This document shows positions 34,075-64,000 of a stretch of 64,000 bases of DNA, one piece after another. Below the pieces are notes generated by a model, which saw nothing but the letters and a program-made list of their open reading frames with translations, did not search any database and was not told where the DNA came from. The DNA is from Patescibacteria group bacterium (GTDB taxonomy: Bacteria > Patescibacteriota > UBA1384 > XYA2-FULL-43-10 > 1-14-0-10-43-13), in contig JBAYVE010000002.1 in assembly GCA_041674765.1 (NCBI GenBank), positions 113,467 to 177,466 of the forward strand, read 5' to 3'. Position numbers and translations under genes: made by a program. Within the stretch, counting starts at the first letter, position 1, and each line of letters opens with the position of its first letter.

Positions 34075-34176
34075 AGCTTAAAGCGAAAAGCATAAAGCCT
34101 AAAGCCGAAAGCGAAAAGCTTAAAGCATAAAGCAGAAAGCATAAAGCATAAAGCAGAAAGCATAAAGCATAAAGCG
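34064..34176. repeat. heptamer/nonamer tandem array (NNAAAGC)n, left arm of an inverted repeat flanking the four-helix-bundle gene
   Basis: ttaaagcataaagcttaaagcgaaaagcataaagcctaaagccgaaagc…cataaagcataaagcg. The array starts inside the cysS 3' end. A partner array with reversed polarity lies at 34541-34569 (ggctttcggctttgagctttttgcttta). Confidence 0.6.
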
Positions 34177-40975: not shown

Positions 40976-41039
40976 GCAGTATCGGCCAGAGGCCGACCGG
41001 CCTTTAATCATAGCAATAAGTAATTGCATCGGAGGGGAT

Positions 41040-41795
41040 ATGAATTTACCAAAAATGAACGTTAATTTCGAAACAGAAAAGATCAAAGATTACTTTCTGC
41101 AGATCAATTGGCATTCGGGCTATTTTCAACTCATGTTACTTATCATAATCGTATTTCTGCTCTCATATATTATCGATTTTCTTTTGTCGAGATCAATCTT
41201 TGGTAAGCGTTACCGAATATTTGTGGCTCCGGGCATTATTCTGCATGAGCTCTCGCATGCTTTGTTCTGCCTTGTCACTGGTGCCAAGATTACCAAGGTC
41301 TCTTTATTCGAAGCGGAAGGCGGTAGCGTCGAACACTCTGCTCCGAAGTTGCCAATTCTAGGACAGATGATGATTTCTCTGGCTCCTTTTATCACTGGTA
41401 TTGTTGCTATTTACTTTCTCGCACATTTTATCGGCATCAAACCGATAGAGTTTAGCCCGACAGACCTGTCGTATGAAAAGATCATACATTATTTTGTTGC
41501 CTCTTTTTCGGCCATCAATGTGTCCAGTTATCGTAACTGGATTATCTTATATTTTATTATCTCAATAATTGTTACTATGACCCCTAGCATTCAAGATTTC
41601 AAAAATTTATTAATGTCTACCTTGGTGTTCACGTTATTGATAATACTAGCTGCTCAGCTTAGGCTTTTGAACTTTATCGCCAATTTACAATATGCGCCGG
41701 CTATATCGATAATGTCTTCAGTTGTTTCCTTGTTGCTTTTGGCCTGCCTTTTCAGTATTATCATATTTGGCATAACGAAGTTTATAAAAAGATAA
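41040..41795 (+). CDS. polytopic membrane protein with HExxH motif (putative intramembrane zinc metalloprotease)
   Basis: GGAGGGG RBS. HELSH lies within a TM helix. There are six or more TM segments. Confidence 0.5.
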   Translation: MNLPKMNVNFETEKIKDYFLQINWHSGYFQLMLLIIIVFLLSYIIDFLLSRSIFGKRYRIFVAPGIILHELSHALFCLVTGAKITKVSLFEAEGGSVEHSAPKLPILGQMMISLAPFITGIVAIYFLAHFIGIKPIEFSPTDLSYEKIIHYFVASFSAINVSSYRNWIILYFIISIIVTMTPSIQDFKNLLMSTLVFTLLIILAAQLRLLNFIANLQYAPAISIMSSVVSLLLLACLFSIIIFGITKFIKR

Positions 41796-44423: not shown

Positions 44424-44566
44424 CATGACATAGATAGCAAATAAATTGATAGAGGATTGAGATAAAGTATAGAATAGGGCTGCCAAAAGGCGGCTCTATT
44501 TTATACTTTACGAACTTTACAGACTTTAAGAACTTTATAAACTTTACGAACTTCTTAAACTGTCTG

Positions 44567-47600: not shown

Positions 47601-50600
47601 TATAATTCCGGACGAGCAATGTATAGTAAGCATTTTGATGCATCTACCAGCCGATGGGGGATTGATTACTCGATTGGAACCGAAGGATCACAACCTTCTC
47701 CGAGCATTGCGGTAAATCCTTCCAACAATGATATTTATGTGTTTTTGATTGCTAGCAACAACAGTGTTAAATACTACAAATGGGCCCTATCGACTGATCC
47801 AGAAGTACCTTCGTCTTGGGAACTTGTCGATAATATTTATAGCACAGGCACTAATACAGGTGTTTCTGTTAGTGAATATGTTTCAGGGTATAAGCTTGGA
47901 ATGATATGGACCAACGGCACTGGCTCTCCTTATACTGTTTATGCTGATTCCTTAAATTTTATTACATATGGTACTTTGAGTGGTACTGTTTACACGGATC
48001 GTACGGCAGCTACTCATGCTGGTGCCGGTGTGCAGGTCAGATTGGTAATCGATGGTACTTTAAACGAAGAAGTTGCTACTACCGATGAGAATGGCGCTTA
48101 CTCTTTTGTAACAGAGGTTGGGACGAACGATAACGTCCTAATATTTGCTGATCCTAGCGCCGGCAATATTTATGGAAATGTCGTGATGACTGCAAGCGGT
48201 GCAGATTTAACGGGCATCGATATTTACGGTAATGCTGTTATTGCTAGAAACGAAACGGCTTCGCAGGTTACAAATGAAACATTTCAAGCTGCTCACGGCT
48301 CTCTCACAGAGACAGGGATATTGTATTCCTCCGGGTTACCCATCGATTCGTCGGTGGATGGAACTTATTTTGACCTTTTGGTTTGGCCTGGCAAGAGTAT
48401 GACAGCTAGTGCGGACGTTCGTGTTGAAGATCTTGTGATAGGTACTGGTGCTACTCTAAGTGGAATGGCCTCTGCAGGTGAAAATGCATTTATGGTTTCC
48501 GGAGACTTTGTGAATAATGGTACTTTTGTTGCCAATCAGCAAAAGCTTATAGTTGAATGCTACGAAGGCTTTTGTAATGGCAGCAGTTCCCAAATTGTCA
48601 CTACTGGGGGAACCAATGCCACCTTTTACGATATTGATATTTCTAAACAGATTGGAGATTCTGTAATTATCGATGGAGACCTTAAAATTACACATGATCT
48701 CAATGTGATACACGGAACAATTGATTTGCTCACAAATACCCCTGATATAGATCTTTCTAATGATCTCTATATTTATACAAATGGTGATATGACAACAATG
48801 CCAGGAGATCTAACTTTTCTTGGGGACAGTGAATCCGAGCTGAGATTGATGAATTCTGATGTTTTTAGCCATATCATCATCGGCGGAGGAGAGGGCAAAA
48901 TTTTATCGTTGATCACATCATCCCTCTTGGCTGATACATTTACTATCAATGCCGGCAATATTTTCAAGCCGCCATACGAAGCGACGGCCACGATCAATGT
49001 GAATTGGGAAAATTATGGTACTCTTGATACTTCAAGCGGAAACTTGGCGTTGGTTTTAGAAGGTTCCGCGGAATCAAAAATATACGGCAACAATACTTTT
49101 TCTCAATTTTACTGCACAACCCCTGATAAAACGATTAAATTTGAAAGTGGTAAAACTCAAAATATTACCGGTGCTTTGAATATTACTGGTACCTCTGGGC
49201 ATAATGTTGTCTTGGCAATGCAGGGCGGGACTTCTGGTGTCGACTTTTGGAATATCGATCCCGATACCAGCTCTAGGACGGTTGATTACGTTAAAGTTAC
49301 TGATTCGACAAATTTAGACGAAGTTTATATCGATCCTCCAAATTACGATCCGGAGAGCAGCCATACTGTAAATTGGTTTCCAGCCGCTCCAACGGTAACA
49401 ACAGGAGCAAAGGATTCTTATCTAACGACGGATTTTTCATCCGACTGGATTGAGGCAAAGGGATCCATCACTGCTACTGGAGGTAAAAATCCGACTATTC
49501 GGGGTTTAAAATATAGCACTGTTGGCGAGCAGGACGATAGCTCTTCGTTTGACAGCGGTGATTACTCAACAGGCGATTTCACAAAAACTCTTTCCAATCT
49601 TGAAGTGAATACTCTCTATTATATCCGCGCCTATGCTACAAATACCGGCGGGACAGGTTACGGCAGCTGGATTTCAATGTATACCAAGGCCAATACTCCG
49701 GGCATTTCCGTTGCCGGGGATTATGACGAGGTCAGCGGCTATCATCTGGACGCTACTATTTCGCCGAATCTAAATTCCGATGGTACAGAATATTACTTGC
49801 AATATTCAACCGACGGAACCAATTTTTATGATCCAACGGGAATGGCTTGGGGGCAGACTGAAAAATCATACATTTTCACAACTGATAAAGACGGTGCTCA
49901 TATTCAACCATATACCCAATACTGGCTAAAGGTTAAAGCTCGAAACGGGGATAATATCGAGACCGACTATTCATCTTCATCAGCCGATGTTACGCCGCCA
50001 GCTGCACCAACAATAACAAATCCGGCAGTTTCAAATATCTGCAGCACTACAGCAACTGTGTCTTGGACAGCTTCCGTAAGTGGGGACAAATACGACCTAT
50101 CTTATGGTACTGATGCTAGCGCCAGCAATACCGCAGTTATCAATAATATCGCAACAACTAGTTATGAGTTGACGAATTTAGTAGAAGGTGACAAGTATTA
50201 TTTCAAAGTAAGGGCAGTTTCGAATGCAAATGGAACGGGTGCTTATTCATCAATTTCTGATCCTTTTACTCCAACAGCATGTGTGGCTCCTATTGCGCCA
50301 AATGATTTTTCGGGGACCCCTGCTTCAGCCTCAAGTATTGATTGGTCCTGGACTGATAGCTCGACGATCGAAACGGGCTACAAAGTGCATAATTTGACGC
50401 ATAGTTCTTTGTCCGGCGATCTTCCTGCAGATTCTATTGCCTGGAGCGAACAAAGTTTGGAAGTCAATACTGCGTATACTCGCCACGTTAATATTTTTAA
50501 CGAGATAGGCAATAATGATTCAAATTCGGCCACGGTTTACACAAAAGCAAATACTCCGGGCCAACCATCGGTTAACCAAATTGATTCAATTTCCTTAAAA

Positions 50601-53600
50601 GTTATTGTTTCTGAAGGGACAGATAATCCAAGCTATACCCATTATGAAATATATGAAACAACTACCGGTAAATATGTCAGGCAAAGTGATGGCACGCTGC
50701 AAGCAACTGAGGATTGGCAAACTTATTCCGGCTGGGGTGGAGCGAGTGGAATAACAATCAACGGATTAGACAGCAATACAAGCTACACCTTCCAAGTTCG
50801 AGCTGCTAACAAAGCTGCTATGGGTCTAGACAATGTTTTGACAGATTGGTCTGCTAGCACAACCAATTCGACTTATCCAAAATATTCTATAACTATCTCT
50901 ATAGACGGCACGGGAGAAGGCACTGTTTCTCCTTCCGCTGTTGATCCGGTCAATAGAGGAACAAGTGTTGACCTTACAGCCTCTCCATCGATTAACTCAA
51001 ATTTCACAACTTGGACCGGATGCACCTCTGTATCTGGCAATGTTTGCCATCTTTCCAATATTACTTCGGACAAATCTGTCACAGCTACTTTTGCGATCAA
51101 AACTTTCACCGTCCAGATATCCAAAGCAGGAAACGGAGCTTCCGTAAGTGATACTTCGCCAAATACAGAGCAGACAGTAAATTATGACGGAAGCATCGAC
51201 ATCACGGCTTTACCCCATATTTCAGCGAACTTTACCTCCTGGTCTGGATGCGATTCTGTCGAAGGTGCAGTCTGTCACCTCACAAATATCACATCCAACA
51301 AATCTGTCACAGCTACTTTTGCGATCAAAACTTTCACTGTTGCGGCAACATCCACCGGTTGTGGTTCGGTTTCAAACTCTTCGCAAGCAATAAATTACGG
51401 CTCGGATTCTGCTGTTATGACCTTCATTCCAAACTCAGGCTGCTATGTCTTCAATGTTGTCGCCGATGGCGATTCAGTCGGTTCGCCATCTTCCAAACAA
51501 TTTACAAATATCACACAAAATCATACCGTCGACGTGGAATTTCGTGAATATCCTACGGCAACGCTATCGATTAATTCCGGTAGCCTAAAAACCAATCAGG
51601 ATACAGTATCATTATCAATAACCCACAATACTACTGCCTTGGAAATGAAAATATCAAATAGCTCTGATTTAACGGGTGCAGAGTATACGCCGGTTCGATC
51701 ATCTATTAGCAATTGGATTTTGGCCGATTCATCTAACGACGGCGTTAAGACGGTCTATCTAAAGGTGAAAGACTCAGTTGGCCATGAGTCTGGAGTGGTT
51801 TCCGCCACCATATCACTCGATAAAACTCCGACTGATGCCCCGCTTAACTTAGTGGCTGTTGGCGGTAAAACCACTACTTCTCTCTCCTGGAAGAATCCTG
51901 TGGCCACCGACTTTACAAAAATGGCGGTTTTTCGTTCTACATCGCCGAATTTCATTCCGGATCTGGGTGCAAACAAGATCGGCGACACCAGAAATAACCT
52001 TGAGCATAGTTATATCGATACCAACGTAGCCAATGGTGTTCTTTACTATTATCGGATAAAAGCAGTTGATGATGCTGATAATTATTCAATATCCTCTAAT
52101 GAGGCATCAGCAAAAGCTGATAACGATCTACCTTCCGCACCAGGTCTGCCGACAATCACCGAAAAAACAAACTCAATTGATGATATAGAGTACACAAATA
52201 GGGGAAATAATACGATAACATGGCCAGCCTCTACAGATCTTAACTCTGGCTTGAAGCATTACTCAATTATGCTTACCATACCCCCGCTAGCTTCGAACAA
52301 TTGCGCTGAAACCACTACCGCTAATTCCCTAACATGTAATTTTTCAGATGGTATCTATAGTATCGCCGTTCAGGCACATGACAATACCGGTAATTCCAGT
52401 GCTTTCTCGCAAACATTATATTTTAATGTCGATACGTCAGCCCCGACGCTGACTGAACCACTTAGTATCTCCGATGCTCCTACCGATAGGTCAGCGCTCG
52501 ATTACAAAGCGCTTCTCTCGTGGAGCAAAGCTTCAGATGGCAATACGGGCGGTATCAGCAGCGGAATACTGGGCTATATCGTCTATCGGTATGAAGATCC
52601 GATCTTACTTCCAAATCAAATAGTAACGAAGGTCAGTACTGATTCCAGCGGAAATCCAAGCTATGTTGACGCAATTACCCCTGATAAAAACTATGATTAT
52701 TCGGTGCTTGCTGTAGACAAAGCAATGAACCGCTCGAGTAAAATCTCAAATAGTATAAATGTTGCCGGAATATTGCCAGGGGAGGGAGAACTGATAATCT
52801 CTGATATAACATCAACACCATCTGATCAGATGGGAGAGAAAACATTTGCTACTATTTCGTGGAAAACATCTGTTCCTTCTACCAGTATGGTCAGTTATGG
52901 TCTTGATACCGGTTATTCTCTGCAATCTCCACTTGACACCGGTCTAAATACGATCCATACAATGGTACTTAGCGATTTGGAGTTCAGCAAAACTTATCAC
53001 TTCAAAGTTTTCTCCGAGGCGGCAAATGGAGATCGTGCAAATTCTGATGATTACACTTTTACTACCAAGGATATCTTGAAGGATGATGATGTCTGGAGTG
53101 TTATACCAGGGGTGATTATTCGAATTGACGATGTTATTTCAAGAATAATCAATGAAATCAACGTTCGAGGGACTGCGCAGACTGTAGCCTTGCCTGTCGC
53201 TAGTTCGGCTGCTGTAGTTGCGGCATCTGGGGCAGCTGCTGCCGCTGCGCCGATTGCCAATGCGATGACCCTCTTTTCATTCCCAGAATATTTACGGGCA
53301 TTGTTATATTCAATATTATCAATCGGTTCAAGGCGTAAAAGGCGGGAATGGGGCAAGGTTGTCGAAGAGGGGACTGGCATCCCGATCGCACAAGCACGGC
53401 TAAGCCTGATTAGGTTGGAAAAGAATATTGCCGGTAACCCAATTGAAAAGATAGTTGCAACTACATATTCTGACAAGAAGGGCAATTATGCTTTCATCGC
53501 GGAGAAAGGTTCCTACCGTCTCTCAGTAGATAAAGATCTTTACAAAGTCTCGAATCTAAAGGACGTTTATCATCCCTCTGATGTTATAAAGGTAAAGGAA

Positions 53601-54116
53601 GACAAAGAAGGGCTGATTATTCCAAGTATCGTCCTTTCGATGGACAGCCATTCTGCAAAAAAGAAATTGTTGAGTTTAAATAGACTTAGTAAGTTTGAAA
53701 AAGTACTTTTCTATGTTTCCCTGGTCTTCCTGATTTTCGGCACTTATACATCGATACTAAATCTTCTAGCCAATCCCCGAAATCCGCTGAACTTTCTGAT
53801 TATTATTTATCCGATTCTCTGGGTTGTTACTCTGGCGAGTTTATTCAAAGTCTCCCCATGGGGCAATGTCGTTGATAAAACAAATTCTCAGGGTGTTTCA
53901 TTGGCTTTGGTTAGGATTATGGATAAAGGCGGAAAAGTGCTCGTAAAGACAGCAATTACCGACCAACAGGGCAAATACCAGACCACCGTGCCTAAAGGTG
54001 AGTACAAGATTCTGGTAGCCAAACAGGGCTACTTCCAAGCTGAGCCGGAGACCTTGAATGCGACAAATGAACTAAATGCTTTGAACAAACAGATTGAGGT
54101 CGTTCAAAGAAATTAG
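44622..54116 (+). CDS. giant (3164 aa) membrane-anchored surface protein with repeated beta-propeller-like, fibronectin-III/Ig-like and carboxypeptidase-regulatory-like domains
   Basis: An N-terminal TM is present. There are about 15 units of LYVGGSF…AGG…IAKWNG..WSALG (~50 aa). These are followed by fn3-like blocks (TPPAAPTITNP…VSWTAS) and a near-duplicated segment (CHLSNITSDKSVTATFAIKTFTV and CHLTNITSNKSVTATFAIKTFTV). The C-terminus has 3-4 TM segments flanked by CarbopepD_reg-like motifs (DKKGNYAF…GSYRLSV; DQQGKYQTTVPKGEYKILV). Confidence 0.8.
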   Translation: MNPDQFKNLDRLDQELARIQRSTKTSWRFFAAPHDWLRMKFRWYYKWHLNPWAQMVHKFSFGLVTAGILLIVLTQFGLFDFNQSTKAAAVSVDTSTTGEATNNSSQRKTFTDTVNNTQWAFYNNGEAIEYSYSSDGSSWVSAGTLAHNTQYFSTNYKAISGAGYVLLATECNTYDVCIYQGSLTGTSISFGSAATVFDGVSLSNNYSRPTVTYDGDNYIWVGAVKDFGNSSPDHLQAQTKKSSSANNISGWGSVLTAGNKMKILTNVIILNQSGSSMYLVASNGSSVTGFKYTTEVPVWTSANDGGEAAWFEFGDGGFSAAVNAVAISGTDVYVGGSFIKIDSLTTNFIAKWNGSSWSTLGSGVGGPVYALEVVGTDLYVGGSFNSAGAVAVNNLAKFNTLTSEWSSVGGGVVGVEENSAIVYSLIESNSSLYIGGSFVLAGETSAKSIAKWDIAAESWSALGNGLIDMNDSTAIVRSIAIDGSSVYAGGMFVQAGEVAANVVAVWDGNSWSSMGSPQMDMAMTVAIYNSEVYIGGLGWSEGNAAKWNGSAWEYINFTSEVRTLVVNDGKLYAGGGFQALGEDSFKFIAVYNGVSWSGLEQDLNNTVSQLTFSGNDLYTVGSYTAAGTVAAKYFAKYSDGQWQAQGSVGGIDGDVNTIAVDDSNNIYIGGTFRTAGGISANRIAKYDGDTWSALGTGTSGEVKVIKVVDDIVYVGGSFASAGGEATSNIASWNPATSTWSALGSGTDSTVYTLADFGSSLYAGGNFSTAGGGAASKVATWNMTAGTWSALGSGVNDLVLSVATDPEGNLYVGGSFTSPGSKIAKWNGLEWSALGTGVNNLVRSLIFVDSKLYVSGHFTTAGGVSSNLVAMWDGENWNSMGLAGSVVYTIAADASNNIYASVPTNGNRSAQVKWNGEVWDNYSNGFAGSGVYSSLFIGDRLYIGGSTTVFSSYGMSGTSLGYLENAIARSTDSGSEVSAVTDSLGNIHLAYSAWYNSGRAMYSKHFDASTSRWGIDYSIGTEGSQPSPSIAVNPSNNDIYVFLIASNNSVKYYKWALSTDPEVPSSWELVDNIYSTGTNTGVSVSEYVSGYKLGMIWTNGTGSPYTVYADSLNFITYGTLSGTVYTDRTAATHAGAGVQVRLVIDGTLNEEVATTDENGAYSFVTEVGTNDNVLIFADPSAGNIYGNVVMTASGADLTGIDIYGNAVIARNETASQVTNETFQAAHGSLTETGILYSSGLPIDSSVDGTYFDLLVWPGKSMTASADVRVEDLVIGTGATLSGMASAGENAFMVSGDFVNNGTFVANQQKLIVECYEGFCNGSSSQIVTTGGTNATFYDIDISKQIGDSVIIDGDLKITHDLNVIHGTIDLLTNTPDIDLSNDLYIYTNGDMTTMPGDLTFLGDSESELRLMNSDVFSHIIIGGGEGKILSLITSSLLADTFTINAGNIFKPPYEATATINVNWENYGTLDTSSGNLALVLEGSAESKIYGNNTFSQFYCTTPDKTIKFESGKTQNITGALNITGTSGHNVVLAMQGGTSGVDFWNIDPDTSSRTVDYVKVTDSTNLDEVYIDPPNYDPESSHTVNWFPAAPTVTTGAKDSYLTTDFSSDWIEAKGSITATGGKNPTIRGLKYSTVGEQDDSSSFDSGDYSTGDFTKTLSNLEVNTLYYIRAYATNTGGTGYGSWISMYTKANTPGISVAGDYDEVSGYHLDATISPNLNSDGTEYYLQYSTDGTNFYDPTGMAWGQTEKSYIFTTDKDGAHIQPYTQYWLKVKARNGDNIETDYSSSSADVTPPAAPTITNPAVSNICSTTATVSWTASVSGDKYDLSYGTDASASNTAVINNIATTSYELTNLVEGDKYYFKVRAVSNANGTGAYSSISDPFTPTACVAPIAPNDFSGTPASASSIDWSWTDSSTIETGYKVHNLTHSSLSGDLPADSIAWSEQSLEVNTAYTRHVNIFNEIGNNDSNSATVYTKANTPGQPSVNQIDSISLKVIVSEGTDNPSYTHYEIYETTTGKYVRQSDGTLQATEDWQTYSGWGGASGITINGLDSNTSYTFQVRAANKAAMGLDNVLTDWSASTTNSTYPKYSITISIDGTGEGTVSPSAVDPVNRGTSVDLTASPSINSNFTTWTGCTSVSGNVCHLSNITSDKSVTATFAIKTFTVQISKAGNGASVSDTSPNTEQTVNYDGSIDITALPHISANFTSWSGCDSVEGAVCHLTNITSNKSVTATFAIKTFTVAATSTGCGSVSNSSQAINYGSDSAVMTFIPNSGCYVFNVVADGDSVGSPSSKQFTNITQNHTVDVEFREYPTATLSINSGSLKTNQDTVSLSITHNTTALEMKISNSSDLTGAEYTPVRSSISNWILADSSNDGVKTVYLKVKDSVGHESGVVSATISLDKTPTDAPLNLVAVGGKTTTSLSWKNPVATDFTKMAVFRSTSPNFIPDLGANKIGDTRNNLEHSYIDTNVANGVLYYYRIKAVDDADNYSISSNEASAKADNDLPSAPGLPTITEKTNSIDDIEYTNRGNNTITWPASTDLNSGLKHYSIMLTIPPLASNNCAETTTANSLTCNFSDGIYSIAVQAHDNTGNSSAFSQTLYFNVDTSAPTLTEPLSISDAPTDRSALDYKALLSWSKASDGNTGGISSGILGYIVYRYEDPILLPNQIVTKVSTDSSGNPSYVDAITPDKNYDYSVLAVDKAMNRSSKISNSINVAGILPGEGELIISDITSTPSDQMGEKTFATISWKTSVPSTSMVSYGLDTGYSLQSPLDTGLNTIHTMVLSDLEFSKTYHFKVFSEAANGDRANSDDYTFTTKDILKDDDVWSVIPGVIIRIDDVISRIINEINVRGTAQTVALPVASSAAVVAASGAAAAAAPIANAMTLFSFPEYLRALLYSILSIGSRRKRREWGKVVEEGTGIPIAQARLSLIRLEKNIAGNPIEKIVATTYSDKKGNYAFIAEKGSYRLSVDKDLYKVSNLKDVYHPSDVIKVKEDKEGLIIPSIVLSMDSHSAKKKLLSLNRLSKFEKVLFYVSLVFLIFGTYTSILNLLANPRNPLNFLIIIYPILWVVTLASLFKVSPWGNVVDKTNSQGVSLALVRIMDKGGKVLVKTAITDQQGKYQTTVPKGEYKILVAKQGYFQAEPETLNATNELNALNKQIEVVQRN

Positions 54117-55871: not shown

Positions 55872-57206
55872 ATGTCTTTTAAATTAATCAAAAAATTAGA
55901 TAACGGTACCCGAATCGGGGAACTGGCGACGCCTCATGGTAAGATTGAGACGCCCTTTTTCATGCCGGTTGGAACTGTCGGCAGCGTGAAATCGGTTTCG
56001 CCGAATGAATTAAAAGAGCTAGGTTCAGAGATCATACTTAGTAATACTTATCATTTGTACTTGCGACCAGGGGAGAAACTGATCAAGGATTTTGGCGGAC
56101 TCCACAAATTTATGAGATGGGATCGGCCAATCCTTACAGACTCTGGGGGATACCAAGTTTTTTCTTTGGCAAGAGGGGACAACCATAATAAGAATGTCAT
56201 TTATGGTTCTGTCATTCCCGCGGAGGCGGGAATCCAGAAGACCAAGGAATTGGATCCCCGGGTCACCGTTCGACCCCGAGCGACTCACGGTCGAGGGGAG
56301 CCCGAGGATGACACCATTATTAGGGACAGCAAAAGGGGTCTTGTCAAAATTACCGAGGAAGGTGTGGAATTTAAATCATTTCTCGATGGCAGCAAACATT
56401 TTTTCACTCCTGAGAAAGTTATCCAAATTCAGCTTGATCTGGGCGTCGATATTCTGATGCCGCTAGATGTTTGTCCGAGCGGCAAAGCAACTCGAAAAGA
56501 AGTGGAAGAATCGGTTCGATTAACTATTTTATGGGCAAAAAGAGCAAAAGAATATTTTGATTGCAAGATACAAGAAACAAGAGACAATAATCAAAAAAAT
56601 AACAATACAACAATAAAACAATATGACAATCGACCTCTTCTTCATGGTATCGTTCAGGGTGGTTTATATGAAGATTTAAGAAGAGAGTGCGCCAAAGAAC
56701 TTATCAAATTGGACTTCGATGGCTATTCGGTCGGCGGATTGGCTGTTGATCATGAAACAAGGGATATGTGGGAGACGGTAAAACTGATGGGGGAGATATT
56801 GCCTCAGGATAAACAAAGGTATCTGATGGGTGTCGGTACACCGGATGATATTATAAAAGCTACAGAATTAGGCATGGATATGTTTGATTGTGTCTTGCCG
56901 ACACGTTTGGCGAGACACGGAAATGTGTATGTCAGAGCAGAAAGCCAAAAACAAAAAGCTAAAAATATTAACCTATATGAACTCATTAACCTCCTCAAAT
57001 CCGAATATCGAACCGATAGGGGAGTGATAGATGAAAATTGTGGCTGTGAAGCTTGCCAGAAGGGAACGGGTTTCTCAAAGGCCTACATTTCCCATCTAAT
57101 TCGTTCAAATGAGATTTTAGGGCTCAGACTTGCGACGTTGCACAATCTCTATCAATATCTGGAGCTTATGAGAGAACTCGGTTGGAGAGTGGAACGGGGA
57201 AAGTAG
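55872..57206 (+). CDS. tgt: queuine tRNA-ribosyltransferase carrying an in-frame repeat-element insertion
   Basis: Conserved Tgt blocks are present (FMPVGTVGSVK, PILTDSGGYQVFSL, YLMGVGTPDD, CxCxxC zinc site). An extra ~45-aa segment (…NVIYGSVIPAEAGIQKTKELDPRVTVRPRATHGRGEPEDDTII…) is encoded by a GTCATCC-type element. Confidence 0.85.
   Translation: MSFKLIKKLDNGTRIGELATPHGKIETPFFMPVGTVGSVKSVSPNELKELGSEIILSNTYHLYLRPGEKLIKDFGGLHKFMRWDRPILTDSGGYQVFSLARGDNHNKNVIYGSVIPAEAGIQKTKELDPRVTVRPRATHGRGEPEDDTIIRDSKRGLVKITEEGVEFKSFLDGSKHFFTPEKVIQIQLDLGVDILMPLDVCPSGKATRKEVEESVRLTILWAKRAKEYFDCKIQETRDNNQKNNNTTIKQYDNRPLLHGIVQGGLYEDLRRECAKELIKLDFDGYSVGGLAVDHETRDMWETVKLMGEILPQDKQRYLMGVGTPDDIIKATELGMDMFDCVLPTRLARHGNVYVRAESQKQKAKNINLYELINLLKSEYRTDRGVIDENCGCEACQKGTGFSKAYISHLIRSNEILGLRLATLHNLYQYLELMRELGWRVERGK
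56211..56316. repeat. GTCATCC-type palindromic element inserted in-frame inside tgt
   Basis: gtcattcccgcggaggcgggaatcc…ggaattggatccccgggtcacc…gggagcccgaggatgacacc. It includes an 8-bp perfect hairpin (ATTCCCGCggagGCGGGAAT). Confidence 0.6.
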
Positions 57207-57284
57207 AATGTAGAGAGTGGAATGTAGAATGGGGAGTGTAGAGCGTAGAATGTAGAACGTAGAATGGGGGGTGTGGAACGGGGC
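57187..57284. repeat. G-rich GTAGAATG/GGAATG tandem repeat (second copy of the 121-190 family)
   Basis: gagtggaacggggaaagtagaatgtagagagtggaatgtagaatggggagtgtagagcgtagaatgtagaacgtagaatggggggtgtggaacgggg. It starts within the last codons of tgt. Confidence 0.55.
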
Positions 57285-57389
57285 ATGTTCATCTGTGGAT
57301 TAGCCTTGACAGTCTTCTCTAGTTGCTTGATAATTGAATTAGCGATAGTCCAATCAATTCAAAGCATCATTTTTAAAATTTGGAGGAAG

Positions 57390-58766
57390 ATGACAAATAG
57401 TGCCGAACAGCAAGCGCCAGCCGAAGCGCGGCAAGCTGAGGCTGAGCAACAAGCACCTCAGATGACTCCCGAACAGCAACTGGCAGCCAATCGATCCACT
57501 GTATTGCAGAAGTCGCGGCAGGAAGCAGGATTTCTAAACTTCTTAACGAAAGCTTCAAAAGCTGCCGGAAATCTTGAGAAAGGTGGCGTTTTAGCTGAAG
57601 GTAGTGCAGAAGATTTAGAGGGATATATCCAGAAATATGAGCAGGTCAAGGAAGTTACAAAAGACCTCTCGGACGTTTATGAAAAGTCTATCTTCAAGGG
57701 GGTCGGCAAGATACCAAATGAGGCAAAGGCGAAAATTGTCGAATATTTAAATGAGTTGGCAATCAACGATGGATCAGAGTTTCAAAGAATCACCCAAGAT
57801 GTCAAAGATTTCAAGCAATTAGAAGGAGCTATCGGTCAGCAAGAAAAAGAACTTGAGAAATATGGTGATCTTGAAAAAATAAGAGAGGAAAGAGAGAAAT
57901 CGGATTCTGCCGCACAGGAGAAAGAGGCAGAGTTGGAGGCACTCAGGAGCGAGCGAGAAGAAAATGGTGACCTTTACGCTGGTGCCTCTATAAAAGTTGG
58001 TTGGATAAAGAAGAGAGATACTGATCCTGATGAGGCCGCAAGGCTTGCAAAGCTTATCCAGGAAAACGATGGCAAAATCAAGGCAGTTAGCGGCGAACTC
58101 GAGGCTTTGCGAAAAAAATCCAATGATGCAGGGGAAGCGATTCAAAAAGCTAAGGATACAGATACGGAAAAGTCACAGTCTGAATTCCGCTATGATGTCT
58201 TGAAAAAACAATTTATCGAAGAGGTTGGCGTCGTCAAGGATTTGAAGAATATCGCTATCAAAACTGTTGAGGAGCGATGCAAGGCACAAGCCTATACGAC
58301 AGAGACTGTCCACAATGATGATACCGACGAAGACGAGGAAGTGACTGAATTATCTGAAGACTTTGATAGTCTGTCAGCCGCAGCCGCCCAATTCGAAAGG
58401 GTGGCGGATAATCAGGAGCTTGATGTCGCCGGTACTGGTGGAGCGACCGCGAAAGGCGCTAGGGAAACTTATAAGACTGTCTTTGAGCAGCTGAAAGCGG
58501 TTATGTCGCTGAAGGTTTCCGATACTGTTTCCAATACCTCCTTCACCATAGAAAGTAATCTTGGTCAGATGGAGAAGGCGCTTGGTAATTTCGTTAAAAA
58601 AACTGAGGGCAATCCAGGGCAGCGGGCAGAATTGATAAATGCGTTGAAGGATACCAGAAAAGAGATGGCAGGATCTATCCAAAAGAAAGAGGCGGTCACG
58701 GGCGAGGAACAGAAGCTGATGGCGCTCAATTTGATTATTGGTGATTTAGAGACAGGAGGTAAATAA
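57390..58766 (+). CDS. cytoplasmic Glu/Lys-rich coiled-coil protein (GC-rich island 2)
   Basis: The ATG at 57390 is preceded by GGAGGAAG. The track ORF begins 42 codons earlier without an RBS. Composition is GC-rich. Confidence 0.55.
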   Translation: MTNSAEQQAPAEARQAEAEQQAPQMTPEQQLAANRSTVLQKSRQEAGFLNFLTKASKAAGNLEKGGVLAEGSAEDLEGYIQKYEQVKEVTKDLSDVYEKSIFKGVGKIPNEAKAKIVEYLNELAINDGSEFQRITQDVKDFKQLEGAIGQQEKELEKYGDLEKIREEREKSDSAAQEKEAELEALRSEREENGDLYAGASIKVGWIKKRDTDPDEAARLAKLIQENDGKIKAVSGELEALRKKSNDAGEAIQKAKDTDTEKSQSEFRYDVLKKQFIEEVGVVKDLKNIAIKTVEERCKAQAYTTETVHNDDTDEDEEVTELSEDFDSLSAAAAQFERVADNQELDVAGTGGATAKGARETYKTVFEQLKAVMSLKVSDTVSNTSFTIESNLGQMEKALGNFVKKTEGNPGQRAELINALKDTRKEMAGSIQKKEAVTGEEQKLMALNLIIGDLETGGK

Positions 58767-59059
58767 TGGCTAATTTCGATTATACAAGACTAGAGCAGCT
58801 GCAAGATGCAGGGGATTGGGCCGGCGCCAAGGCGATGATCAAAGGTTTCTTTGAAACTGAAGTAACCGCGGGGGATATCGGCGAGGTTTATGCTCGTCTC
58901 TCAATTGCTTATATCAGGGTTAGTAATGAGATCAATCAAAAGTATTCTCAGTTTTTGGCGGCCACTCTGGATGCGCTAAAAAAGGTGGATCAGGCAAAAA
59001 ATGAGAACGATAAGCAGATTGATATTGAGGCAGTCAGGAATCAAATCGCGGGATTGTAA
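58766..59059 (+). CDS. small hypothetical protein, translationally coupled to upstream gene
   Basis: AGGAGG RBS. The taATGg start overlaps the upstream stop. Length is 97 aa. Confidence 0.5.
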   Translation: MANFDYTRLEQLQDAGDWAGAKAMIKGFFETEVTAGDIGEVYARLSIAYIRVSNEINQKYSQFLAATLDALKKVDQAKNENDKQIDIEAVRNQIAGL

Positions 59060-59086
59060 TATTTGAAACAGGTGTCGAAACGAGAT

Positions 59087-59116
59087 AGCGCCGGGATAAG
59101 TTCGGCGCTTTTTTTG
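59087..59116 (+). terminator. Rho-independent terminator
   Basis: AGCGCCGggataagttCGGCGCTTTTTTTG. Confidence 0.7.
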
Positions 59117-59135
59117 TATGACGGAACCAAAACTC

Positions 59136-59163
59136 TTGACAAAAAATATAATTCTGATACAAT
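59136..59163 (+). promoter_or_regulatory. near-consensus promoter P1 (TTGACA-N16-TACAAT)
   Basis: ctcttgacaaaaaatataattctgatacaat. It shares the CTCTTGACAAAAA -35 context with P2. Confidence 0.55.
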
Positions 59164-59169
59164 GATCAG

Positions 59170-59530
59170 TTCTGAGGGTATGGTTCGACTTAGCTCGCCA
59201 TGAAGGAGTGCGGAAGTCCTCAGGAGGTAAATACATCTTTTAAAAAACAGATTACAGATAATACGGATATACAGAATATTCGTAAATTCATATCCATTCG
59301 TAATCTTCGTTTAGTACTTGCGTCAATGTGCTGGTAGTCAATCCATTTAATTGGAAATGTAGGTTCCCCCTCCGCCTGCATGATTATCAGCACAGTGCTG
59401 CAAGTCATATTACACCAATCTGATATTCTTCGACTCCGCGGTAATTCGAGGGTGGAGAAGTTCTCCACCTACTACGTAGAGTCGAACAATAGATATGTCA
59501 GAACGGCAGACGAGTTATTGATAAAGGGGC
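59170..59530 (+). ncRNA. candidate small RNA 1 (C-rich loop hairpin at 59357-59381)
   Basis: Lies downstream of P1. The hairpin is ATGTAGG-ttccccctccg-CCTGCAT. No RBS-led ORF is convincing. The 3' end is undefined. Confidence 0.3.
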
Positions 59531-59539
59531 GTATTCCTC

Positions 59540-59568
59540 TTGACAAAAACAAAGCAGTGTGATATAAT
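59540..59568 (+). promoter_or_regulatory. consensus promoter P2 (TTGACA-N17-TATAAT)
   Basis: ctcttgacaaaaacaaagcagtgtgatataat. Confidence 0.6.
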
Positions 59569-59574
59569 ATAAAG

Positions 59575-59790
59575 TGTTGGTTGATAGACCAGCAGTAAAA
59601 GATTACTTGATCATAAGATTGGCAGGTGGGAATGAGGGATCGGATGCCGATATAATGAATCGAAGAAATTGCAGGCGGCAGCGTCCTGCATAGCTCACAC
59701 CATCGCAAGATGGACAATGGGTTCCCCCTCCGCCCATTGAAGAGTTATGTAGGACATTGTTGCCTGTTTTTTAAAGCAAAACGGCATCAA
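59575..59790 (+). ncRNA. candidate small RNA 2 (C-rich loop hairpin at 59715-59739)
   Basis: The hairpin is CAATGGG-ttccccctccg-CCCATTG, with an 11-nt loop identical to that of sRNA 1. It is followed by a T-tract (tgcctgtttttt). Confidence 0.3.
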
Positions 59791-59930
59791 AACAGATTAC
59801 GGATTATTTAAGTATACAAATTTTGGATATTTAAGTAATCCTTTGAACTTTGACAATAGAATATTTATCCGGAGCAAGAAATTTTCATACATTGTTCGGC
59901 AATATTTGCATGCGAGATTCCCGCCTTCGC

Positions 59931-60063
59931 GGGAATGACAAAGAAATAGGGGAATGACAGAAAGTCTGGGGAATGACAAAGAAAACAGGAGAATGACAAA
60001 AAAAGGGGGAATATCAGAGAAATATGGGAATAATAGAGAAATAAGGGAATAGTAGATAGACAG
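59931..60063. repeat. iteron-like array: seven ~19-bp direct repeats of GGGAATGACAAAGAAA decaying 5'->3'
   Basis: gggaatgacaaagaaatag / gggaatgacagaaagtctg / gggaatgacaaagaaaacag / gagaatgacaaaaaaag / ggggaatatcagagaaatat / gggaataatagagaaataa / gggaatagtag. It is preceded by the hairpin ATTCCCGCcttcGCGGGAAT and lies 105 bp upstream of the 60169 gene. Confidence 0.6.
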
Positions 60064-60168
60064 AGAAGTTGGCAAACTATTGAAAATTTCTTTGCTCCGT
60101 ATAAAGCAGAGTCCGTCGATGCAATCCTGCTAGACGGTTGACACATATATCCTGAGGAGGATACGACG

Positions 60169-61017
60169 ATGAGGTTTTTATTCCTCTTAGTGTTGGCCGT
60201 CGCATTATTGTCGACGACGGCAGCGTGGGCAAGTGGCTCAACCATGCCCGCGCCGGACAAAAAAGGTGCCCCGTCGGCTTCGCTGAAAAAAGACGGAAGT
60301 ACCTATGAATTCCACTTCCATTTCGATGGCAGTGGAAATCGGCGTACTACCCGCCGTCAGCATTCGCAGCCCTCTGTGTCTCCTGCAACCACCCGGTCGC
60401 AGGAAGACAGCCAGAACAAAAACATCTCCCGTTTGGACAGCAATCAGCAGGAGATGGGGGCAGCGATCAATCAGCTCGCTGCCAATGACACCTCACAGAA
60501 TCAGGCGATTGCAGCTGGCCAGCAAAAAGACCAGCAGCAAGACAATCAAATCCAGGCGAATGAAAAAAAATTGGAGGAGAACATTATGCCGATGTGGGCA
60601 ATAATCTTAGGCCTTGTACTGCTGTTCTTGTTAGTTGCTGGCACGATCACATTCATGTGGATCCGTGCATCCATCGCTGGTAAGGCAGCAGCTGCGGCAA
60701 CACCGCCGCCGACTACTCCTGGCGATCCACCCCTGAACCCTCCGTTGCTCCCTGTCGATCTTAACCTCGACGGGATCAAGGAGGTCAACCCCGACGAAGT
60801 CATCAAAGCGAATTTCGCTTTGGATTACCGAAATGATAGGCTTCGAGGGGTTCGATTGAGCCTACGTCCGGGATCTGCGCCGGCTGAGTCCGCCTCGGAC
60901 CGCAGCGGAGGTGGAAATGTTATTAACAATAGCATTTTCCTGAATGGCGCGAAATCCCTCGGAGATGCTCTTCGGGGCGACGCGCCGGAGCCCGAGGCCC
61001 CTCCGCAAACATCTTAA
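60169..61017 (+). CDS. signal-peptide + mid-protein TM hypothetical protein, Gln-rich, Pro-rich linker (GC-rich island 2)
   Basis: GGAGG RBS. The signal peptide is MRFLFLLVLAVALLSTTAAWA. The internal TM is WAIILGLVLLFLLVAGTITFMWI. Confidence 0.55.
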   Translation: MRFLFLLVLAVALLSTTAAWASGSTMPAPDKKGAPSASLKKDGSTYEFHFHFDGSGNRRTTRRQHSQPSVSPATTRSQEDSQNKNISRLDSNQQEMGAAINQLAANDTSQNQAIAAGQQKDQQQDNQIQANEKKLEENIMPMWAIILGLVLLFLLVAGTITFMWIRASIAGKAAAAATPPPTTPGDPPLNPPLLPVDLNLDGIKEVNPDEVIKANFALDYRNDRLRGVRLSLRPGSAPAESASDRSGGGNVINNSIFLNGAKSLGDALRGDAPEPEAPPQTS

Positions 61018-61162
61018 CTGCCCCGCCCCCAGGGATGGGAAACGAGGGAATACCGAATGGGAAGTTGCTCAAGTCTTCGGACAAGGGCTCTTCCCATTTT
61101 TTTATTACTAAAATACCACCTGCAAGTGCCAGGTGGTATTTCAAAAAGGTTATCATTTTATG

Positions 61163-64000
61163 CTAAGCGTGGCCGTGTCTTGCTTCCATATCTTTCTTCC
61201 ATTTCTCGAAATTCCCAGTTAGAAAAGAATACTTTTGCGCCGTCAAATTCTTCTGAAATTCCCCAACAGAGATCGGTTTGAGCGGCGCTGAGGTGAAAAT
61301 AATTTTTCCTTTTTGATCTAGTCCGAAGGGAGTGGTAGTAATTTTGCCGTCACTGATATTATCTACCTTCAGGAATTCCATTGTGCCGTCGGTTAGCTCC
61401 CGTATGAAAACCTGTTCCGGCTTAACTTCGAGTTCCGAAGCTGCCTCAATGTTGCCTTCTGGAGTCAACCTCGGCACGCTGATCTTTGGGGCGGCTTGTG
61501 GTTCTTTCTCTTTCTTAAACTCAGTGACGATGGCATAAAAATCATTGAACTTTGCGTTCTTACTTTTGCCTGCTTTTATGAGCGCATCGATAATCTCAGG
61601 GAGAGATCTGGAATCCTCTTTTAGTAGAGTAGCGCTAATCTTTTTCTTGTCTTTATCTTGCAAGGCAGCCAGATAGGGATCCAGCAAAGCGATTCGGTCT
61701 CCATCGGACATAATCTGATCGCCGAAAAAATAATCGGTATTCTTCTTTTGTTTCGAAAAGATTTCCTCAACTTCGCCGACTTTCGGTATTTGCAGGACAA
61801 GGGCTTTGTCATCGTTATGACGGTAGGCGAAAAATTTGCCTTCTTGTGTCGTCACTATCAGAGTAAGGGAGATATCCGCCCCGGCAACTCTAGCACAGAG
61901 ATCGGAGAGTTTTTTTGTATTTTTATCGGCGGCTGCATCAGACTGCTCAAGATCATCGGCAATTCCAGCATAGGCGCTACCCAATTCTGCGGCTGCTTTT
62001 TTCAAATCTGCGATTTTCTTTTCACTTTTATCCGGAGAAGAGATAGAAACAACTAATTGCTGTCCGTTCGGTAGTCGGCCAAACGTAAATGTTTCCCGAA
62101 GGGCCTTTTCTTTTTGGTCAGGGTTGGCTTCATGTTGTCCGGCTGTTTCATAATTACCGACTCGGCCTGACTGTTTTTCGAGGAGTTTGCCGCCCTCGGT
62201 TTTCTGCATACCTTCGGGCACGTTTTCCGCTGGTTCTTGTACGGGCGTAGGGCCTTCGCTACCGCTTTCGCCGGATCCGAAGCTTGATGGTCCTCGCCCA
62301 GATGGTGCGGCTCCAGCACCGGTACTAGCGGTTCCTCTTCTTTCCTCTTCTTTTTTCTTGGCAAATTTTTCATTTCGGATAACCATAATGAACCGGGAAT
62401 CGGCGCGTACCAAGTCTATCAGGGGTACTCTTTGAACAGGGTTGAATTCCTTGGCCTCATTAACAACTTGCATATCAACACAACTTCTCTCGGGATGATC
62501 CAGATCAATCTCATCGGTACGAATAACTTTCATAATTTGGTTAGCTGAATTATCTCCATTTTCGCTTAAATCCTGAAGATAATATTGACCGGGGAGAGGC
62601 AGACGGTTGTTCCTCGCCATTTCTAGAAGTTGATCACGAACGTCGCCTTCGGGCAGCAGACGGCGGCGCTTCATCTCCTGATTGTGGATAAATTCTGTTC
62701 TGGTATCAGCATCTCTCTGGTGACGGCCGTCATTGAAAAATTTACCGATAAAGAATCTGCCGACGGTTGCTGCCATTACTCCCGCAAGCTGGATACCGAC
62801 TCGTTTGACTGCTTCGCGGTAAAAAGCTTCTTTGCCCAGCTGCCCCAAAGCAATTGCTCCCTCATAAAGCAGATGCCCGCCATGTTCGGCGATACCTTTA
62901 AAACCATCCAATGCGGCTGCCCCGACATCGCCGATTCTCTCGGCTGCCAGGCGCTCACCAACACTTTTATATAGATAGTAAGCCTGATCTTGAATTTGCT
63001 TGACGGGATGAGAAACGCCATCGCGGTCAATATCGATGCCTTTGACAGTTTCTCCGCTATTGTATGCATTCGTCATATTGTCATAGGCTTTGCCGGTCAG
63101 ATGACCCCAGCCGCCGTTTAGAAGAGTTACTGCCGTTACTGCCATGCTGCCGATCATATCGCCCCATTCCGAACGGTTTTCCCAGTTGTGACGCTCTGAC
63201 TCTAACTTATTGCGAAGCTCTGCCATTGTTGTTGAATCGGGCGAAACGTAACTAGGTTGATACATCTCTGTCCCGTCGCGTTTTTCCGGATTGTTATCGC
63301 TGTGCTCTAGGTCTATATATGGATCAATATCGGCTTCTTTGCCAAAAAGTTTACCGAGGAATCCCTTTGTCTTCTTGTTTGGAGTACCGTCATCGTTTTC
63401 CTCTTCGCCCTGTTGGTATTGAATGTCGACTGAGAGATGTTCGAAGCTGTTTTGAAAATTGACGCGATCGATAACTGCTTGATTATGCCGAAGTTCCCAA
63501 GTCTCTCGTGTGATCGGTTCGTCGGTGAATGGATCGGTCGGATCTGTTTCATCAAATTTCTGGTAGGCAATTTCTCGTTCATTTAACTTATTTAGTTTTT
63601 TGAAGTATCGAAGCGTGGCAGCAATTTCTTGTTGTTTTAAGTGCCGTTCCTGGCTACTGAAATGTCTGGTGAGTTCGACGGATCCACGTCCGATTGCACT
63701 GCCCAAGACTGTTCGGCCAACCATATCAGCAACTGCCGCTGAGCCCACCTCCGCGCCCAAAAGCCAATTCATGGCCATAGCAACGCCGGCCGTAATTGCG
63801 CCTTTTAAGACTATCTTTTCAGCAAAGTTAATAGTCTCCCGAAGGGCGGCGTGACCCCTTCTGTATTCAACCGAACCGGTCCGTTTGTTTATCCGAAAAT
63901 CGCTACCTTGTAGATCAATATCTACTATTTTTTTATTTTCATCCCGCTTGATTTCCCAATGTCCATCGCCCGAGAGATATGACTGAGCCCGTCCCCAAAA
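61163..64000 (-). CDS. large (>945 aa) hypothetical protein, 5'-partial (continues past window end); N-terminal glycine-zipper-like hydrophobic region
   Basis: The frame is open from 64000 down to the stop at 61163. The track called only 871 aa from the internal Met at 63778. There is an upstream GxxxG-rich segment (GAITAGVAMAMNWLLGAEVGSAAVADMVGRTVLGSAIGRG). Composition is GC-rich. Confidence 0.6.
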   Translation of the reverse strand, partial: FWGRAQSYLSGDGHWEIKRDENKKIVDIDLQGSDFRINKRTGSVEYRRGHAALRETINFAEKIVLKGAITAGVAMAMNWLLGAEVGSAAVADMVGRTVLGSAIGRGSVELTRHFSSQERHLKQQEIAATLRYFKKLNKLNEREIAYQKFDETDPTDPFTDEPITRETWELRHNQAVIDRVNFQNSFEHLSVDIQYQQGEEENDDGTPNKKTKGFLGKLFGKEADIDPYIDLEHSDNNPEKRDGTEMYQPSYVSPDSTTMAELRNKLESERHNWENRSEWGDMIGSMAVTAVTLLNGGWGHLTGKAYDNMTNAYNSGETVKGIDIDRDGVSHPVKQIQDQAYYLYKSVGERLAAERIGDVGAAALDGFKGIAEHGGHLLYEGAIALGQLGKEAFYREAVKRVGIQLAGVMAATVGRFFIGKFFNDGRHQRDADTRTEFIHNQEMKRRRLLPEGDVRDQLLEMARNNRLPLPGQYYLQDLSENGDNSANQIMKVIRTDEIDLDHPERSCVDMQVVNEAKEFNPVQRVPLIDLVRADSRFIMVIRNEKFAKKKEEERRGTASTGAGAAPSGRGPSSFGSGESGSEGPTPVQEPAENVPEGMQKTEGGKLLEKQSGRVGNYETAGQHEANPDQKEKALRETFTFGRLPNGQQLVVSISSPDKSEKKIADLKKAAAELGSAYAGIADDLEQSDAAADKNTKKLSDLCARVAGADISLTLIVTTQEGKFFAYRHNDDKALVLQIPKVGEVEEIFSKQKKNTDYFFGDQIMSDGDRIALLDPYLAALQDKDKKKISATLLKEDSRSLPEIIDALIKAGKSKNAKFNDFYAIVTEFKKEKEPQAAPKISVPRLTPEGNIEAASELEVKPEQVFIRELTDGTMEFLKVDNISDGKITTTPFGLDQKGKIIFTSAPLKPISVGEFQKNLTAQKYSFLTGNFEKWKKDMEARHGHA

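Follow-up and report, generated by a model that had tools for sequence, protein, structure and literature searches.

Does the DNA that follows the tgt gene in a Patescibacteria genome represent a horizontally acquired island, or is it an ordinary part of the chromosome? The window, i.e. the whole stretch of 64,000 nucleotides analysed here, is taken from contig JBAYVE010000002.1 of a Patescibacteria group bacterium (assembly GCA_041674765.1, forward-strand positions 113,467 to 177,466), and the region in question spans positions 57,285 to 64,000. The original prediction, made from the letters alone, had described it as a GC-rich module of foreign origin with a coupled gene pair, two small RNAs (sRNAs), a repeat array, a membrane protein and a very large protein. 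We recovered all of these features where it had placed them; the proteins carry the NCBI locus tags WC107_02745 to WC107_02760. With moderate confidence, we read the region as the tgt-proximal half of a vertically inherited clade locus, which would combine sRNAs that pair with Shine-Dalgarno (SD) sequences with envelope proteins associated with coupling ATPases.

Is the same gene block present in related genomes? The 222-kb parent contig of the window, ENA ERZ27247358 k141_1527432, is called locus L001 here, and the relatives are numbered likewise. A tgt-based scan with one genome per species gave ten relatives with a tgt ~50-67% identical, and seven further loci were reached through homologues of the large protein (P0003, P0006, P0007, P0010, P0015) and one homologue of a protein of 97 amino acids (aa). 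The records label members of this clade, which consists of ultra-small Patescibacteria, as Patescibacteria group, Saccharibacteria or Berkelbacteria. By tblastn and blastp, the L10-L7/L12-tgt genes are followed 7-10 kb downstream by a VirD4-like ATPase gene in L003, L010 and L009, the ATPase being 70-75% identical in L003 and L010 and 50% identical in L009. Between these anchors the relatives often carry a GC-rich gene for a bitopic membrane protein, and a DUF5663 gene (115-141 aa) adjoins a gene of ~950-1190 aa, followed by genes of ~115-200 and 350-600 aa. The order in the seven further loci is a giant fn3 surface protein, L10, L12, TGT and small membrane proteins; then the DUF5663 gene with the large protein, a ~930-1300-aa homologue of a 638-aa protein of L001 and a 280-580-aa protein; and finally a DUF8128/VirD4-like ATPase, a ~167-aa protein, a Sigma70_r4/HARE-HTH protein and a second DUF8128 ATPase, the latter matching DUF87 and/or TrwB_AAD_bind weakly. 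Homologues at equivalent positions exist for the DUF5663 protein, for the large protein and for the protein of 638 aa. On L001, diverging genes of 638 and 411 aa lie beyond the large gene and its DUF5663 neighbour, and the ATPase gene follows:

L001 18361-20849, just past the window: VirD4/TraD-like DUF8128 ATPase of 846 aa with a Walker A motif

This ATPase matches Pfam T4SS-DNA_transf (E 2.5e-6, 27.1 bits, cut-off 20.1) and TraD families, and its TrwB_AAD_bind and TraG-D_C matches lie just under the Pfam cut-offs. The locus would extend from rplJ-rplL-tgt to two such VirD4-like DUF8128 ATPase genes, which resemble coupling proteins of type IV secretion systems (T4SS), and a sigma70-region-4/HARE-HTH regulator. 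Locus proteins are ~30% identical across the clade or have diverged beyond detection; most of them look like orphans because they evolve very fast.

The comparison with sister genomes suggested by the original prediction found the block at the same position in 14 other related populations, and wherever a related locus reaches far enough, the block again follows rplJ-rplL-tgt and precedes a VirD4-like ATPase gene. As block and position recur in the relatives, the proposed horizontal acquisition is not supported: judged by gene content and order, the block is vertically inherited and clade-specific, not an island.

Two further observations concern the locus as a whole. Directly upstream of rplJ, at 44622-54116, a gene encodes a 3164-aa surface protein with Rax2, fn3, Flg_new_2 and CarboxypepD_reg matches and C-terminal transmembrane (TM) segments; several relatives have a giant gene at the same position, whose recorded products reach 7072 aa. 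In L087, a Y1 (IS200/IS605-type) transposase gene (8806-9480) separates the DUF5663/large-protein pair from the large gene that follows, and thus the conserved block tolerates insertions.

How, then, does the composition of the region fit? The GC shift that had been called visible is a slight rise, 0.462 in the region against 0.418 in the rest of the window, and it leaves GC at third codon positions (GC3) normal in three of the four genes (0.44, 0.47 and 0.44 for the proteins of 458, 97 and 1052 aa; flank mean 0.416, standard deviation 0.053). Only the gene of the 282-aa membrane protein deviates, with a GC3 of 0.58 and a high GC content at all codon positions. The rise falls mostly on codon position 1, because the proteins are rich in E, D, A and G. 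Tetranucleotide skew, another check that had been suggested, gave no sign of foreign DNA, since the distance of the region (0.170) is no larger than that of some other windows of 6.7 kb, which span 0.09-0.18.

A remnant of a phage, plasmid or integrative and conjugative element would explain why GC is slightly raised with one gene clearly GC-rich, and why the proteins are orphans. It would also fit the nearby VirD4-like ATPase, which matches PHROG 5156 (E 1e-91) and has homologues, 21-23% identical, in phage G (gp156), SP-10-like and other large Bacillus phages, and the Y1 transposase gene within the block of L087. However, chromosomal position and gene order are shared with the 14 other populations, and GC3 is normal in three genes. 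ARAGORN detected neither a tRNA gene nor a transfer-messenger RNA (tmRNA) in the window, the eight proteins scanned downstream of tgt matched no integrase or replication family, and a search for a phage homologue of the large protein returned none. Even the GC-rich membrane-protein gene is kept across most of the clade; as its GC-richness is conserved there too, it was not imported recently, and it looks like a conserved compositional anomaly rather than a recent transfer. We therefore regard an acquired island as very improbable. The case shows that orphan genes and a slight rise in GC can look like an island where the proteins simply evolve fast and have a biased composition. Elsewhere in the window, two adjacent genes at 36352-38450 (420 and 279 aa, GC 0.52-0.54, GC3 0.59-0.62, no Pfam match) deviate compositionally more than the region studied; they are presumably the 'GC-rich island 1' of the original prediction.

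The strongest result of the analysis concerns RNA rather than protein. The two sRNAs lie between the first gene pair and the membrane-protein gene:

59136-59411, plus strand: sRNA copy A, promoter 59136-59163 (11/12, extended TG), putative start ~59170
59540-59776, plus strand: sRNA copy B, promoter 59540-59568 (12/12, extended TG), putative start ~59575

Copy A has a 5' hairpin (GUUCUGAGGG...CCUCAGGA) followed by a three-way-junction core (59316-59411) with the loop UCCCCCUCC at 59365-59373, and scores 79.3 bits with the covariance model of the family. Copy B has its core at 59671-59773 and the same loop at 59723-59731, its outer stem and a U-run serving as terminator; it scores 83.9 bits with a fold z-score of -7.2. 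Both RNAs were first seen to be conserved in L010, a locus whose flanking proteins barely align. With a motif scan and then the covariance model, we counted 25 copies among 15 populations, one or two per genome; each copy has the orientation of tgt and lies on its downstream side; two relatives have no copy, and their contigs stop right after tgt. Folded singly, each copy adopts the same architecture, i.e. an outer stem of 21-22 bp (5' GCGGUAGCGUGCUG pairing with 3' CAGCACAGUGCCGC), a variable hairpin, in many copies with a UUCG or UUUA cap, and a 7-bp hairpin that bears an invariant 9-nt loop, YCCCCCUCC, unpaired in every fold. The stem below this loop covaries, whereas the loop itself does not vary. 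In copy B and in genomes with a single copy, the outer stem is followed by a U-run, and near-consensus promoters lie upstream of most copies. Copies A and B cluster separately across genomes, and the duplication is therefore old.

The covariation was found by several routes. When 22 copies were aligned by MAFFT without supervision, RNAalifold detected compensatory changes in 27 of 30 pairs; direct counting in the same alignment gave 97.7% of cells paired and double changes in 25 of 28 pairs, a level of pairing reached by none of 500 shuffles, and partners slid along the alignment paired in 23-45% only. Among 24 model-aligned copies, double changes occur in 26/30 pairs. Copies held out from the model (two of L215 and the second of L085) scored 71-77 bits, and reverse strands scored only 23-46 bits. 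As a specificity control we used 80 loci with the C-rich motif, listed by a metagenome scan with the pattern CCCCCTCCGCCN{8,38}RGCACA, which by itself is too unspecific; the covariance model matched none of them (476 kb of decoy). Rfam 15 gave no match at E<=1 in 57000-64000, and in three relatives only a spurious let-7 match. On this comparative evidence the sRNA pair, which the original prediction had recognized by its twin promoters, is real, and it represents a new structured RNA family that is absent from Rfam.

Three candidates were set aside in the course of this analysis. Five GC-rich viral contigs from a loop-hairpin scan match only the hairpin (20-24 bits) and do not belong to the family. 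A two-piece tmRNA as the source of the loop was ruled out by the ARAGORN result. A small open reading frame (ORF) in RNA A, 45 codons long here and 13 in L010, has no conserved start codon or SD sequence, and it was rejected as a gene because the shared bases make up the outer stem.

How might these RNAs act? The loop of both RNAs is complementary to GGAGGGGG and includes CCUCC, the anti-SD core. In RNAIII, RsaE, SprD, FsrA and the tandem, multicopy LhrC, UCCC or C-rich loops lie exposed; they bind G-rich SD sequences and block initiation (PMC4132741), and on this precedent we propose that SD sequences are sequestered in trans. The two sibling sRNAs would be transcribed from their own strong sigma-70 promoters, each would fold into a three-way junction displaying the 9-nt loop, and this loop would pair with G-rich ribosome-binding sites (GGAGGGG) and block translation initiation. 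Consensus promoters, stem/U-run ends and an exposed, SD-complementary C-rich loop are present at the sequence level, and by analogy with these RNAs SD pairing would be the most likely mechanism.

Which genes could be addressed in this way? Our target survey covered only ~20 kb of sequence per relative. GGAGG is present in only 7 of the 37 genes of the window. The gene of an M50B-like peptidase (41040-41795) has a G-extended SD sequence, GGAGGGGAU, at 41022-41040, and its orthologues in L003, L007, L009 and L010 keep such an extension (GGAGGGGAA, GGAGGGUAU, GAGGGGAUU and GGAGGGGUG). The canonical anti-SD tail of 16S rRNA does not match this extension, and the sRNA loop is complementary to it. 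We consider the peptidase gene a candidate conserved target, a lead rather than evidence. In silico, the start of the giant surface-protein gene (GAGGGGAAUG) and some cluster genes in relatives also pair with the loop.

Several points weigh against SD pairing in trans. The complement of the loop is essentially itself a strong SD sequence, so that any well-translated gene ranks highly and duplex energy does not discriminate between targets. The transcript ends were placed from consensus promoters and terminators alone, and copy A shows no U-tract after its core; it may therefore read through or be processed. Finally, the invariant loop could equally be a protein-binding site. The RNAs might be protein-binding or decoy RNAs that, for instance, titrate an RNA-binding protein, or cis-acting parts of a long leader of the membrane-protein gene. 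We take protein binding as a serious alternative, although we find these readings rather doubtful. Invariant loops on covarying stems within three-way junctions are typical of recognition sites of proteins or ribosomes, and two copies in tandem would suit a multi-site decoy, but no candidate binding protein is known. A leader would account for the missing terminator of copy A and for the membrane-protein gene that follows on the same strand in most loci, yet copy B ends in a strong stem and a U-run, and in L088 the RNAs come after the genes of the small membrane proteins and are convergent with the large gene, an arrangement that argues against an obligatory cis leader.

What do the protein genes of the region contribute? 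Pfam, NCBIfam and PHROG hold no family for the proteins of 458, 97, 282 and 1052 aa and returned sub-threshold noise only, in line with the original view that the content is unannotatable by motif; PDB sequence searches, with single sequences and with a family profile, gave no match either. The first two genes form an operon:

57306-57334, plus strand: promoter-like site TTGACA-17-GATAAT (11/12) for the 458-aa/97-aa operon
57390-58766, plus strand: WC107_02745, an orphan acidic helical protein of 458 aa (E 13.5%, K 10.7%)
58766-59059, plus strand: 97-aa protein, overlapping the 458-aa gene at a TAATG stop/start, GGAGG 8 nt upstream
59087-59117, plus strand: intrinsic terminator of the operon, 9-bp stem (59087-59109) with 6 GC pairs, then a T-run

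The SD sequence GGAGGAAG precedes the ATG at 57390. The overlap and the GGAGG agree with the earlier description of an E/K-rich ORF coupled to a short one, and from this layout we take it that the 97-aa gene is translationally coupled to the 458-aa gene. The 97-aa family comprises 4 clusters among 5.8 billion searched, with a homologue in L010 at E 3e-14; two of the three other clusters could be placed on contigs, each behind a helical protein of 433-436 aa after tgt. Word-indexed homologue searches with the 458-aa and the 1052-aa proteins returned only the proteins themselves.

Downstream of the sRNAs lies the compositionally unusual gene:

60169-61017, plus strand: bitopic envelope protein of 282 aa with a signal peptide, a Q-rich coiled coil, a TM helix (139-157) and a Pro/Ala-rich tail

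Its signal-peptide-like N-terminus and single strong TM helix are as originally described, and the protein is also encoded on a Logan contig. Most of its positional analogues have a signal peptide, a coiled coil, a Pro-rich linker, a TM helix and a tail. Most analogue genes are GC-rich, with a GC3 of 0.54-0.77 in genomes of 0.39-0.46 GC; they include L010 13519-14229, L009 12952-14163, L083 13148-13834 and L089 541-1521, and L003 and one gene of L085 are exceptions.

The minus-strand ORF with its stop codon at 61163 remains open to base 64000, as had been noted, and on the parent contig it amounts to 1052 aa (WC107_02760); its description as a glycine-zipper protein fits less well, since the segments concerned are only moderately hydrophobic (Kyte-Doolittle 1.5-1.6). 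A 130-aa gene precedes it on the same strand. The record shows a faint DUF5663 match for its product, which we place in that family because it is homologous to clear DUF5663 members. An exhaustive search of 1.84 billion proteins found 25 other representatives of the large-protein family, all of 700-1900 aa, and the N-terminal ~570 aa are conserved in the 26 representatives. From the alignment of these 26 sequences we obtained an AlphaFold2 model with a mean predicted local distance difference test score (pLDDT) of 73.8, in which two parts stand out:

62609-64000, minus strand: in-window part (residues 108-571) of the family-specific N-terminal module
61472-62209, minus strand: PP2C/PPM-fold domain, residues ~705-950, a confident alpha/beta domain (pLDDT 85-94)

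In the model, residues 75-571 form long helical hairpins with small beta insertions, disordered linkers are present, and a small beta domain follows the PP2C-fold domain up to the stop codon. Structure prediction had been recommended for these proteins; for the N-terminal module (~570 aa, of which ~500, residues 75-571, are structured) no significant fold match was found. For the C-terminal domain, the top Foldseek matches are PP2C phosphatases only, and its neighbours include the Legionella T4SS effectors SidD and Lem3. Pfam PP2C and SpoIIE profiles and a PDB sequence search did not match the domain, and the model points to a hidden PP2C/PPM fold. The PP2C-like domain is common to at least eight family members, and two other members carry Metallophos (calcineurin-like phosphoesterase). 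This narrow family, in which a novel N-terminal module is fused to a cryptic PP2C fold, is a new element.

By synteny only, we take it as most likely that the 458/97-aa pair, the 282-aa protein and the DUF5663/1052-aa pair would be envelope-associated parts or substrates of a machinery built around the coupling ATPases. No virB4 or channel gene (analogues of VirB3, VirB6 or VirB8) was recognized in the ~10 kb covered on either side, with the parent sequence reaching to about window coordinate 71017. Patescibacteria commonly carry VirD4-like genes that lie apart from virB4, and these may have been exapted (PMC12102498). Set against this part of our reading is that the proteins of the region have no homology to any known T4SS component; the 282-aa protein shows sub-threshold NCBIfam matches to DotA/TraY and IcmG/DotF (E 0.01-0.07). 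Moreover, the 458-aa protein has no similarity, by BLASTP or profile, to its positional analogues in L010 (436 aa) and L215 (433 aa). In eight aligned members inspected by eye, the DGxGG aspartate of the PP2C domain appears to be replaced by an invariant Ser, and the ALLD and N[DE] motifs seem to be kept; with this aspartate apparently lost, the domain may be catalytically dead.

Could the large protein act outside the cell? We keep a host-interaction or effector-like role as a possibility, because the gene adjoins VirD4-like ATPases and because the enzyme-fold C-terminus is replaced in other members. In its full form, the proposal would have the 1052-aa and DUF5663 proteins as a polymorphic effector and its chaperone, exported through the VirD4-like ATPases into host cells with the PP2C domain as payload. 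A conserved N-terminal module with a C-terminus that is PP2C-like in at least eight members and Metallophos in two, the T4SS effectors SidD and Lem3 among the structural neighbours, a small acidic partner gene that is always adjacent, constant synteny of the pair with T4CP-like (type IV coupling protein-like) ATPases, and a fast divergence as expected of interface proteins would all agree with it. However, neither a known trafficking domain nor an immunity-gene pattern was detected, no virB4 or channel gene was recognized in the surrounding ~10 kb, the key DGxGG aspartate is apparently lost, and the amphipathic helices suggest a resident membrane-associated protein. We judge the effector/chaperone pair unlikely and return to the envelope-associated machinery as the preferred reading.

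Is the 282-aa gene controlled by the repeats in front of it? Upstream of this gene and at the end of tgt lie repeats of three kinds:

59931-60056, plus strand: degenerate 19-nt tandem repeats, ~6-7 copies of the unit GGGAATGACAAAGAAA (Tandem Repeats Finder, TRF: 6.3 copies, 73% match)
59914-59939: palindromic repeat element TCCCGCCTTCGCGGGAATGAC, with a second copy in frame in tgt at 56211-56231
57185-57280: degenerate 7/14-nt tandem repeat (GTAGAAT-like) that spans the tgt stop codon, found by TRF and a repeat search; slippage DNA

The 19-nt array is real: at up to 3 mismatches the unit matches 6 times (5 in the array) against 1.5 expected, a number that none of 100 shuffles reached. A regular array of ~6-7 copies that ends 112 nt upstream of a gene would suit iterons or operators for the 282-aa gene or for replication, as had originally been suggested for seven ~19-bp repeats. 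We found, however, that the array starts in the right arm of the palindromic element and that its copies decay progressively from there in the 3' direction, that no Rep or regulator gene is adjacent, and that the relatives have no counterpart at the same position, while unrelated 7-21-nt arrays are common in other intergenic DNA of this and related genomes. A regulatory or replicative function is hardly to be expected, and the array is probably incidental slippage DNA.

Further repeats were seen outside the region. Similar short-period arrays (7-18 nt) lie at 125-185, 34065-34175 and 44505-44561 (e.g. TAAAGCA x16), and relatives carry analogous arrays of unrelated sequence, which appears to be a habit of the lineage. 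The tgt gene itself (55872-57206) has an in-frame insertion of ~35 aa, SVIPAEAGIQKTKELDPRVTVRPRATHGRGEPEDD, at 56205-56310, which consists of the palindromic element GTCATTCCCGCGGAGGCGGGAATC; the tgt genes of L010, L003 and L215 lack this insertion. The tgt of L003 carries what is apparently the same element in another frame (...HSREGGNPEPGS...) at a different site; these different sites suggest that the element enters variable loops of an essential enzyme without shifting the reading frame.

Why would such a locus matter? Much of bacterial diversity falls within the Patescibacteria, organisms with very small genomes that in most cases live on other cells. To our knowledge, almost nothing is known about gene regulation in them, and our literature searches found no sRNA described from the group. 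A covarying, promoter-equipped sRNA family offers a concrete and testable entry to their post-transcriptional control. It is a speculative and rather improbable extension of our reading that the twin RNAs found the first sRNA family of Patescibacteria (candidate phyla radiation, CPR), their invariant loop mimicking an anti-SD sequence and gating the translation of envelope and host-interaction genes, and that the 1052-aa/DUF5663 pair is the substrate and chaperone of an exapted VirD4-like exporter. If this were true, an ancient duplicated riboregulator would be hard-wired beside the rplJL-tgt translation genes, with the coupling-ATPase-associated cluster next to it, a membrane protease of the M50 type and the giant surface protein as candidate targets, and a VirD4-like export machine would serve the epibiotic lifestyle. 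The locus also ties stand-alone VirD4-like ATPases, the role of which is an open question in Patescibacteria (PMC12102498), to specific partner proteins, one of which has a hidden PP2C fold of the kind used by Legionella T4SS effectors.

Among known systems, the region resembles genomic islands, polymorphic toxin loci and iteron arrays in its orphan genes, its replaceable C-terminal domain and its direct repeats. Unlike genomic islands, it is syntenic, has no mobility genes among those scanned and shows mostly normal GC3; unlike iteron arrays, its repeats are generic and not conserved. The literature searched contains no rplJL-tgt-linked cluster with DUF5663, ~1000-aa proteins, a sigma-like regulator and sRNAs, and nothing on DUF5663 or DUF8128. 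Compared with the T4SS and stand-alone coupling proteins of Patescibacteria (PMC12102498), the 846-aa ATPase is likewise chromosomal and, as most coupling proteins there, does not stand beside a recognizable virB4, whereas the region's own genes match no T4SS component. From the PP2C/PPM phosphatases (Stp1, PstP, SpoIIE, RsbU/X, the pseudophosphatase TAB1, SidD and Lem3) the predicted domain differs by an identity of only 7-15%, by the Ser that apparently replaces the DGxGG aspartate throughout the family, and by its fusion to the ~570-aa family-specific N-terminal module. The closest parallel to the RNAs is provided by the UCCC/C-rich-loop sRNAs of low-GC Gram-positive bacteria (LhrC1-5 of Listeria, RsaE/RoxS, RNAIII hairpins and SprD of Staphylococcus, and FsrA of Bacillus), which are likewise small transcripts with their own promoter, a stem-loop terminator and a C-rich hairpin-loop motif complementary to SD sequences; the sibling copies in tandem recall Listeria LhrC, and the Gram-positive hosts of these sRNAs are AT-rich as well. 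In contrast to them, the new family resembles no Rfam family in sequence or by covariance model, and instead of several UCCC motifs it has one longer, strictly invariant YCCCCCUCC loop, set within a conserved three-way junction that a stem of 21-22 bp closes, in RNAs that hold a fixed position next to tgt.

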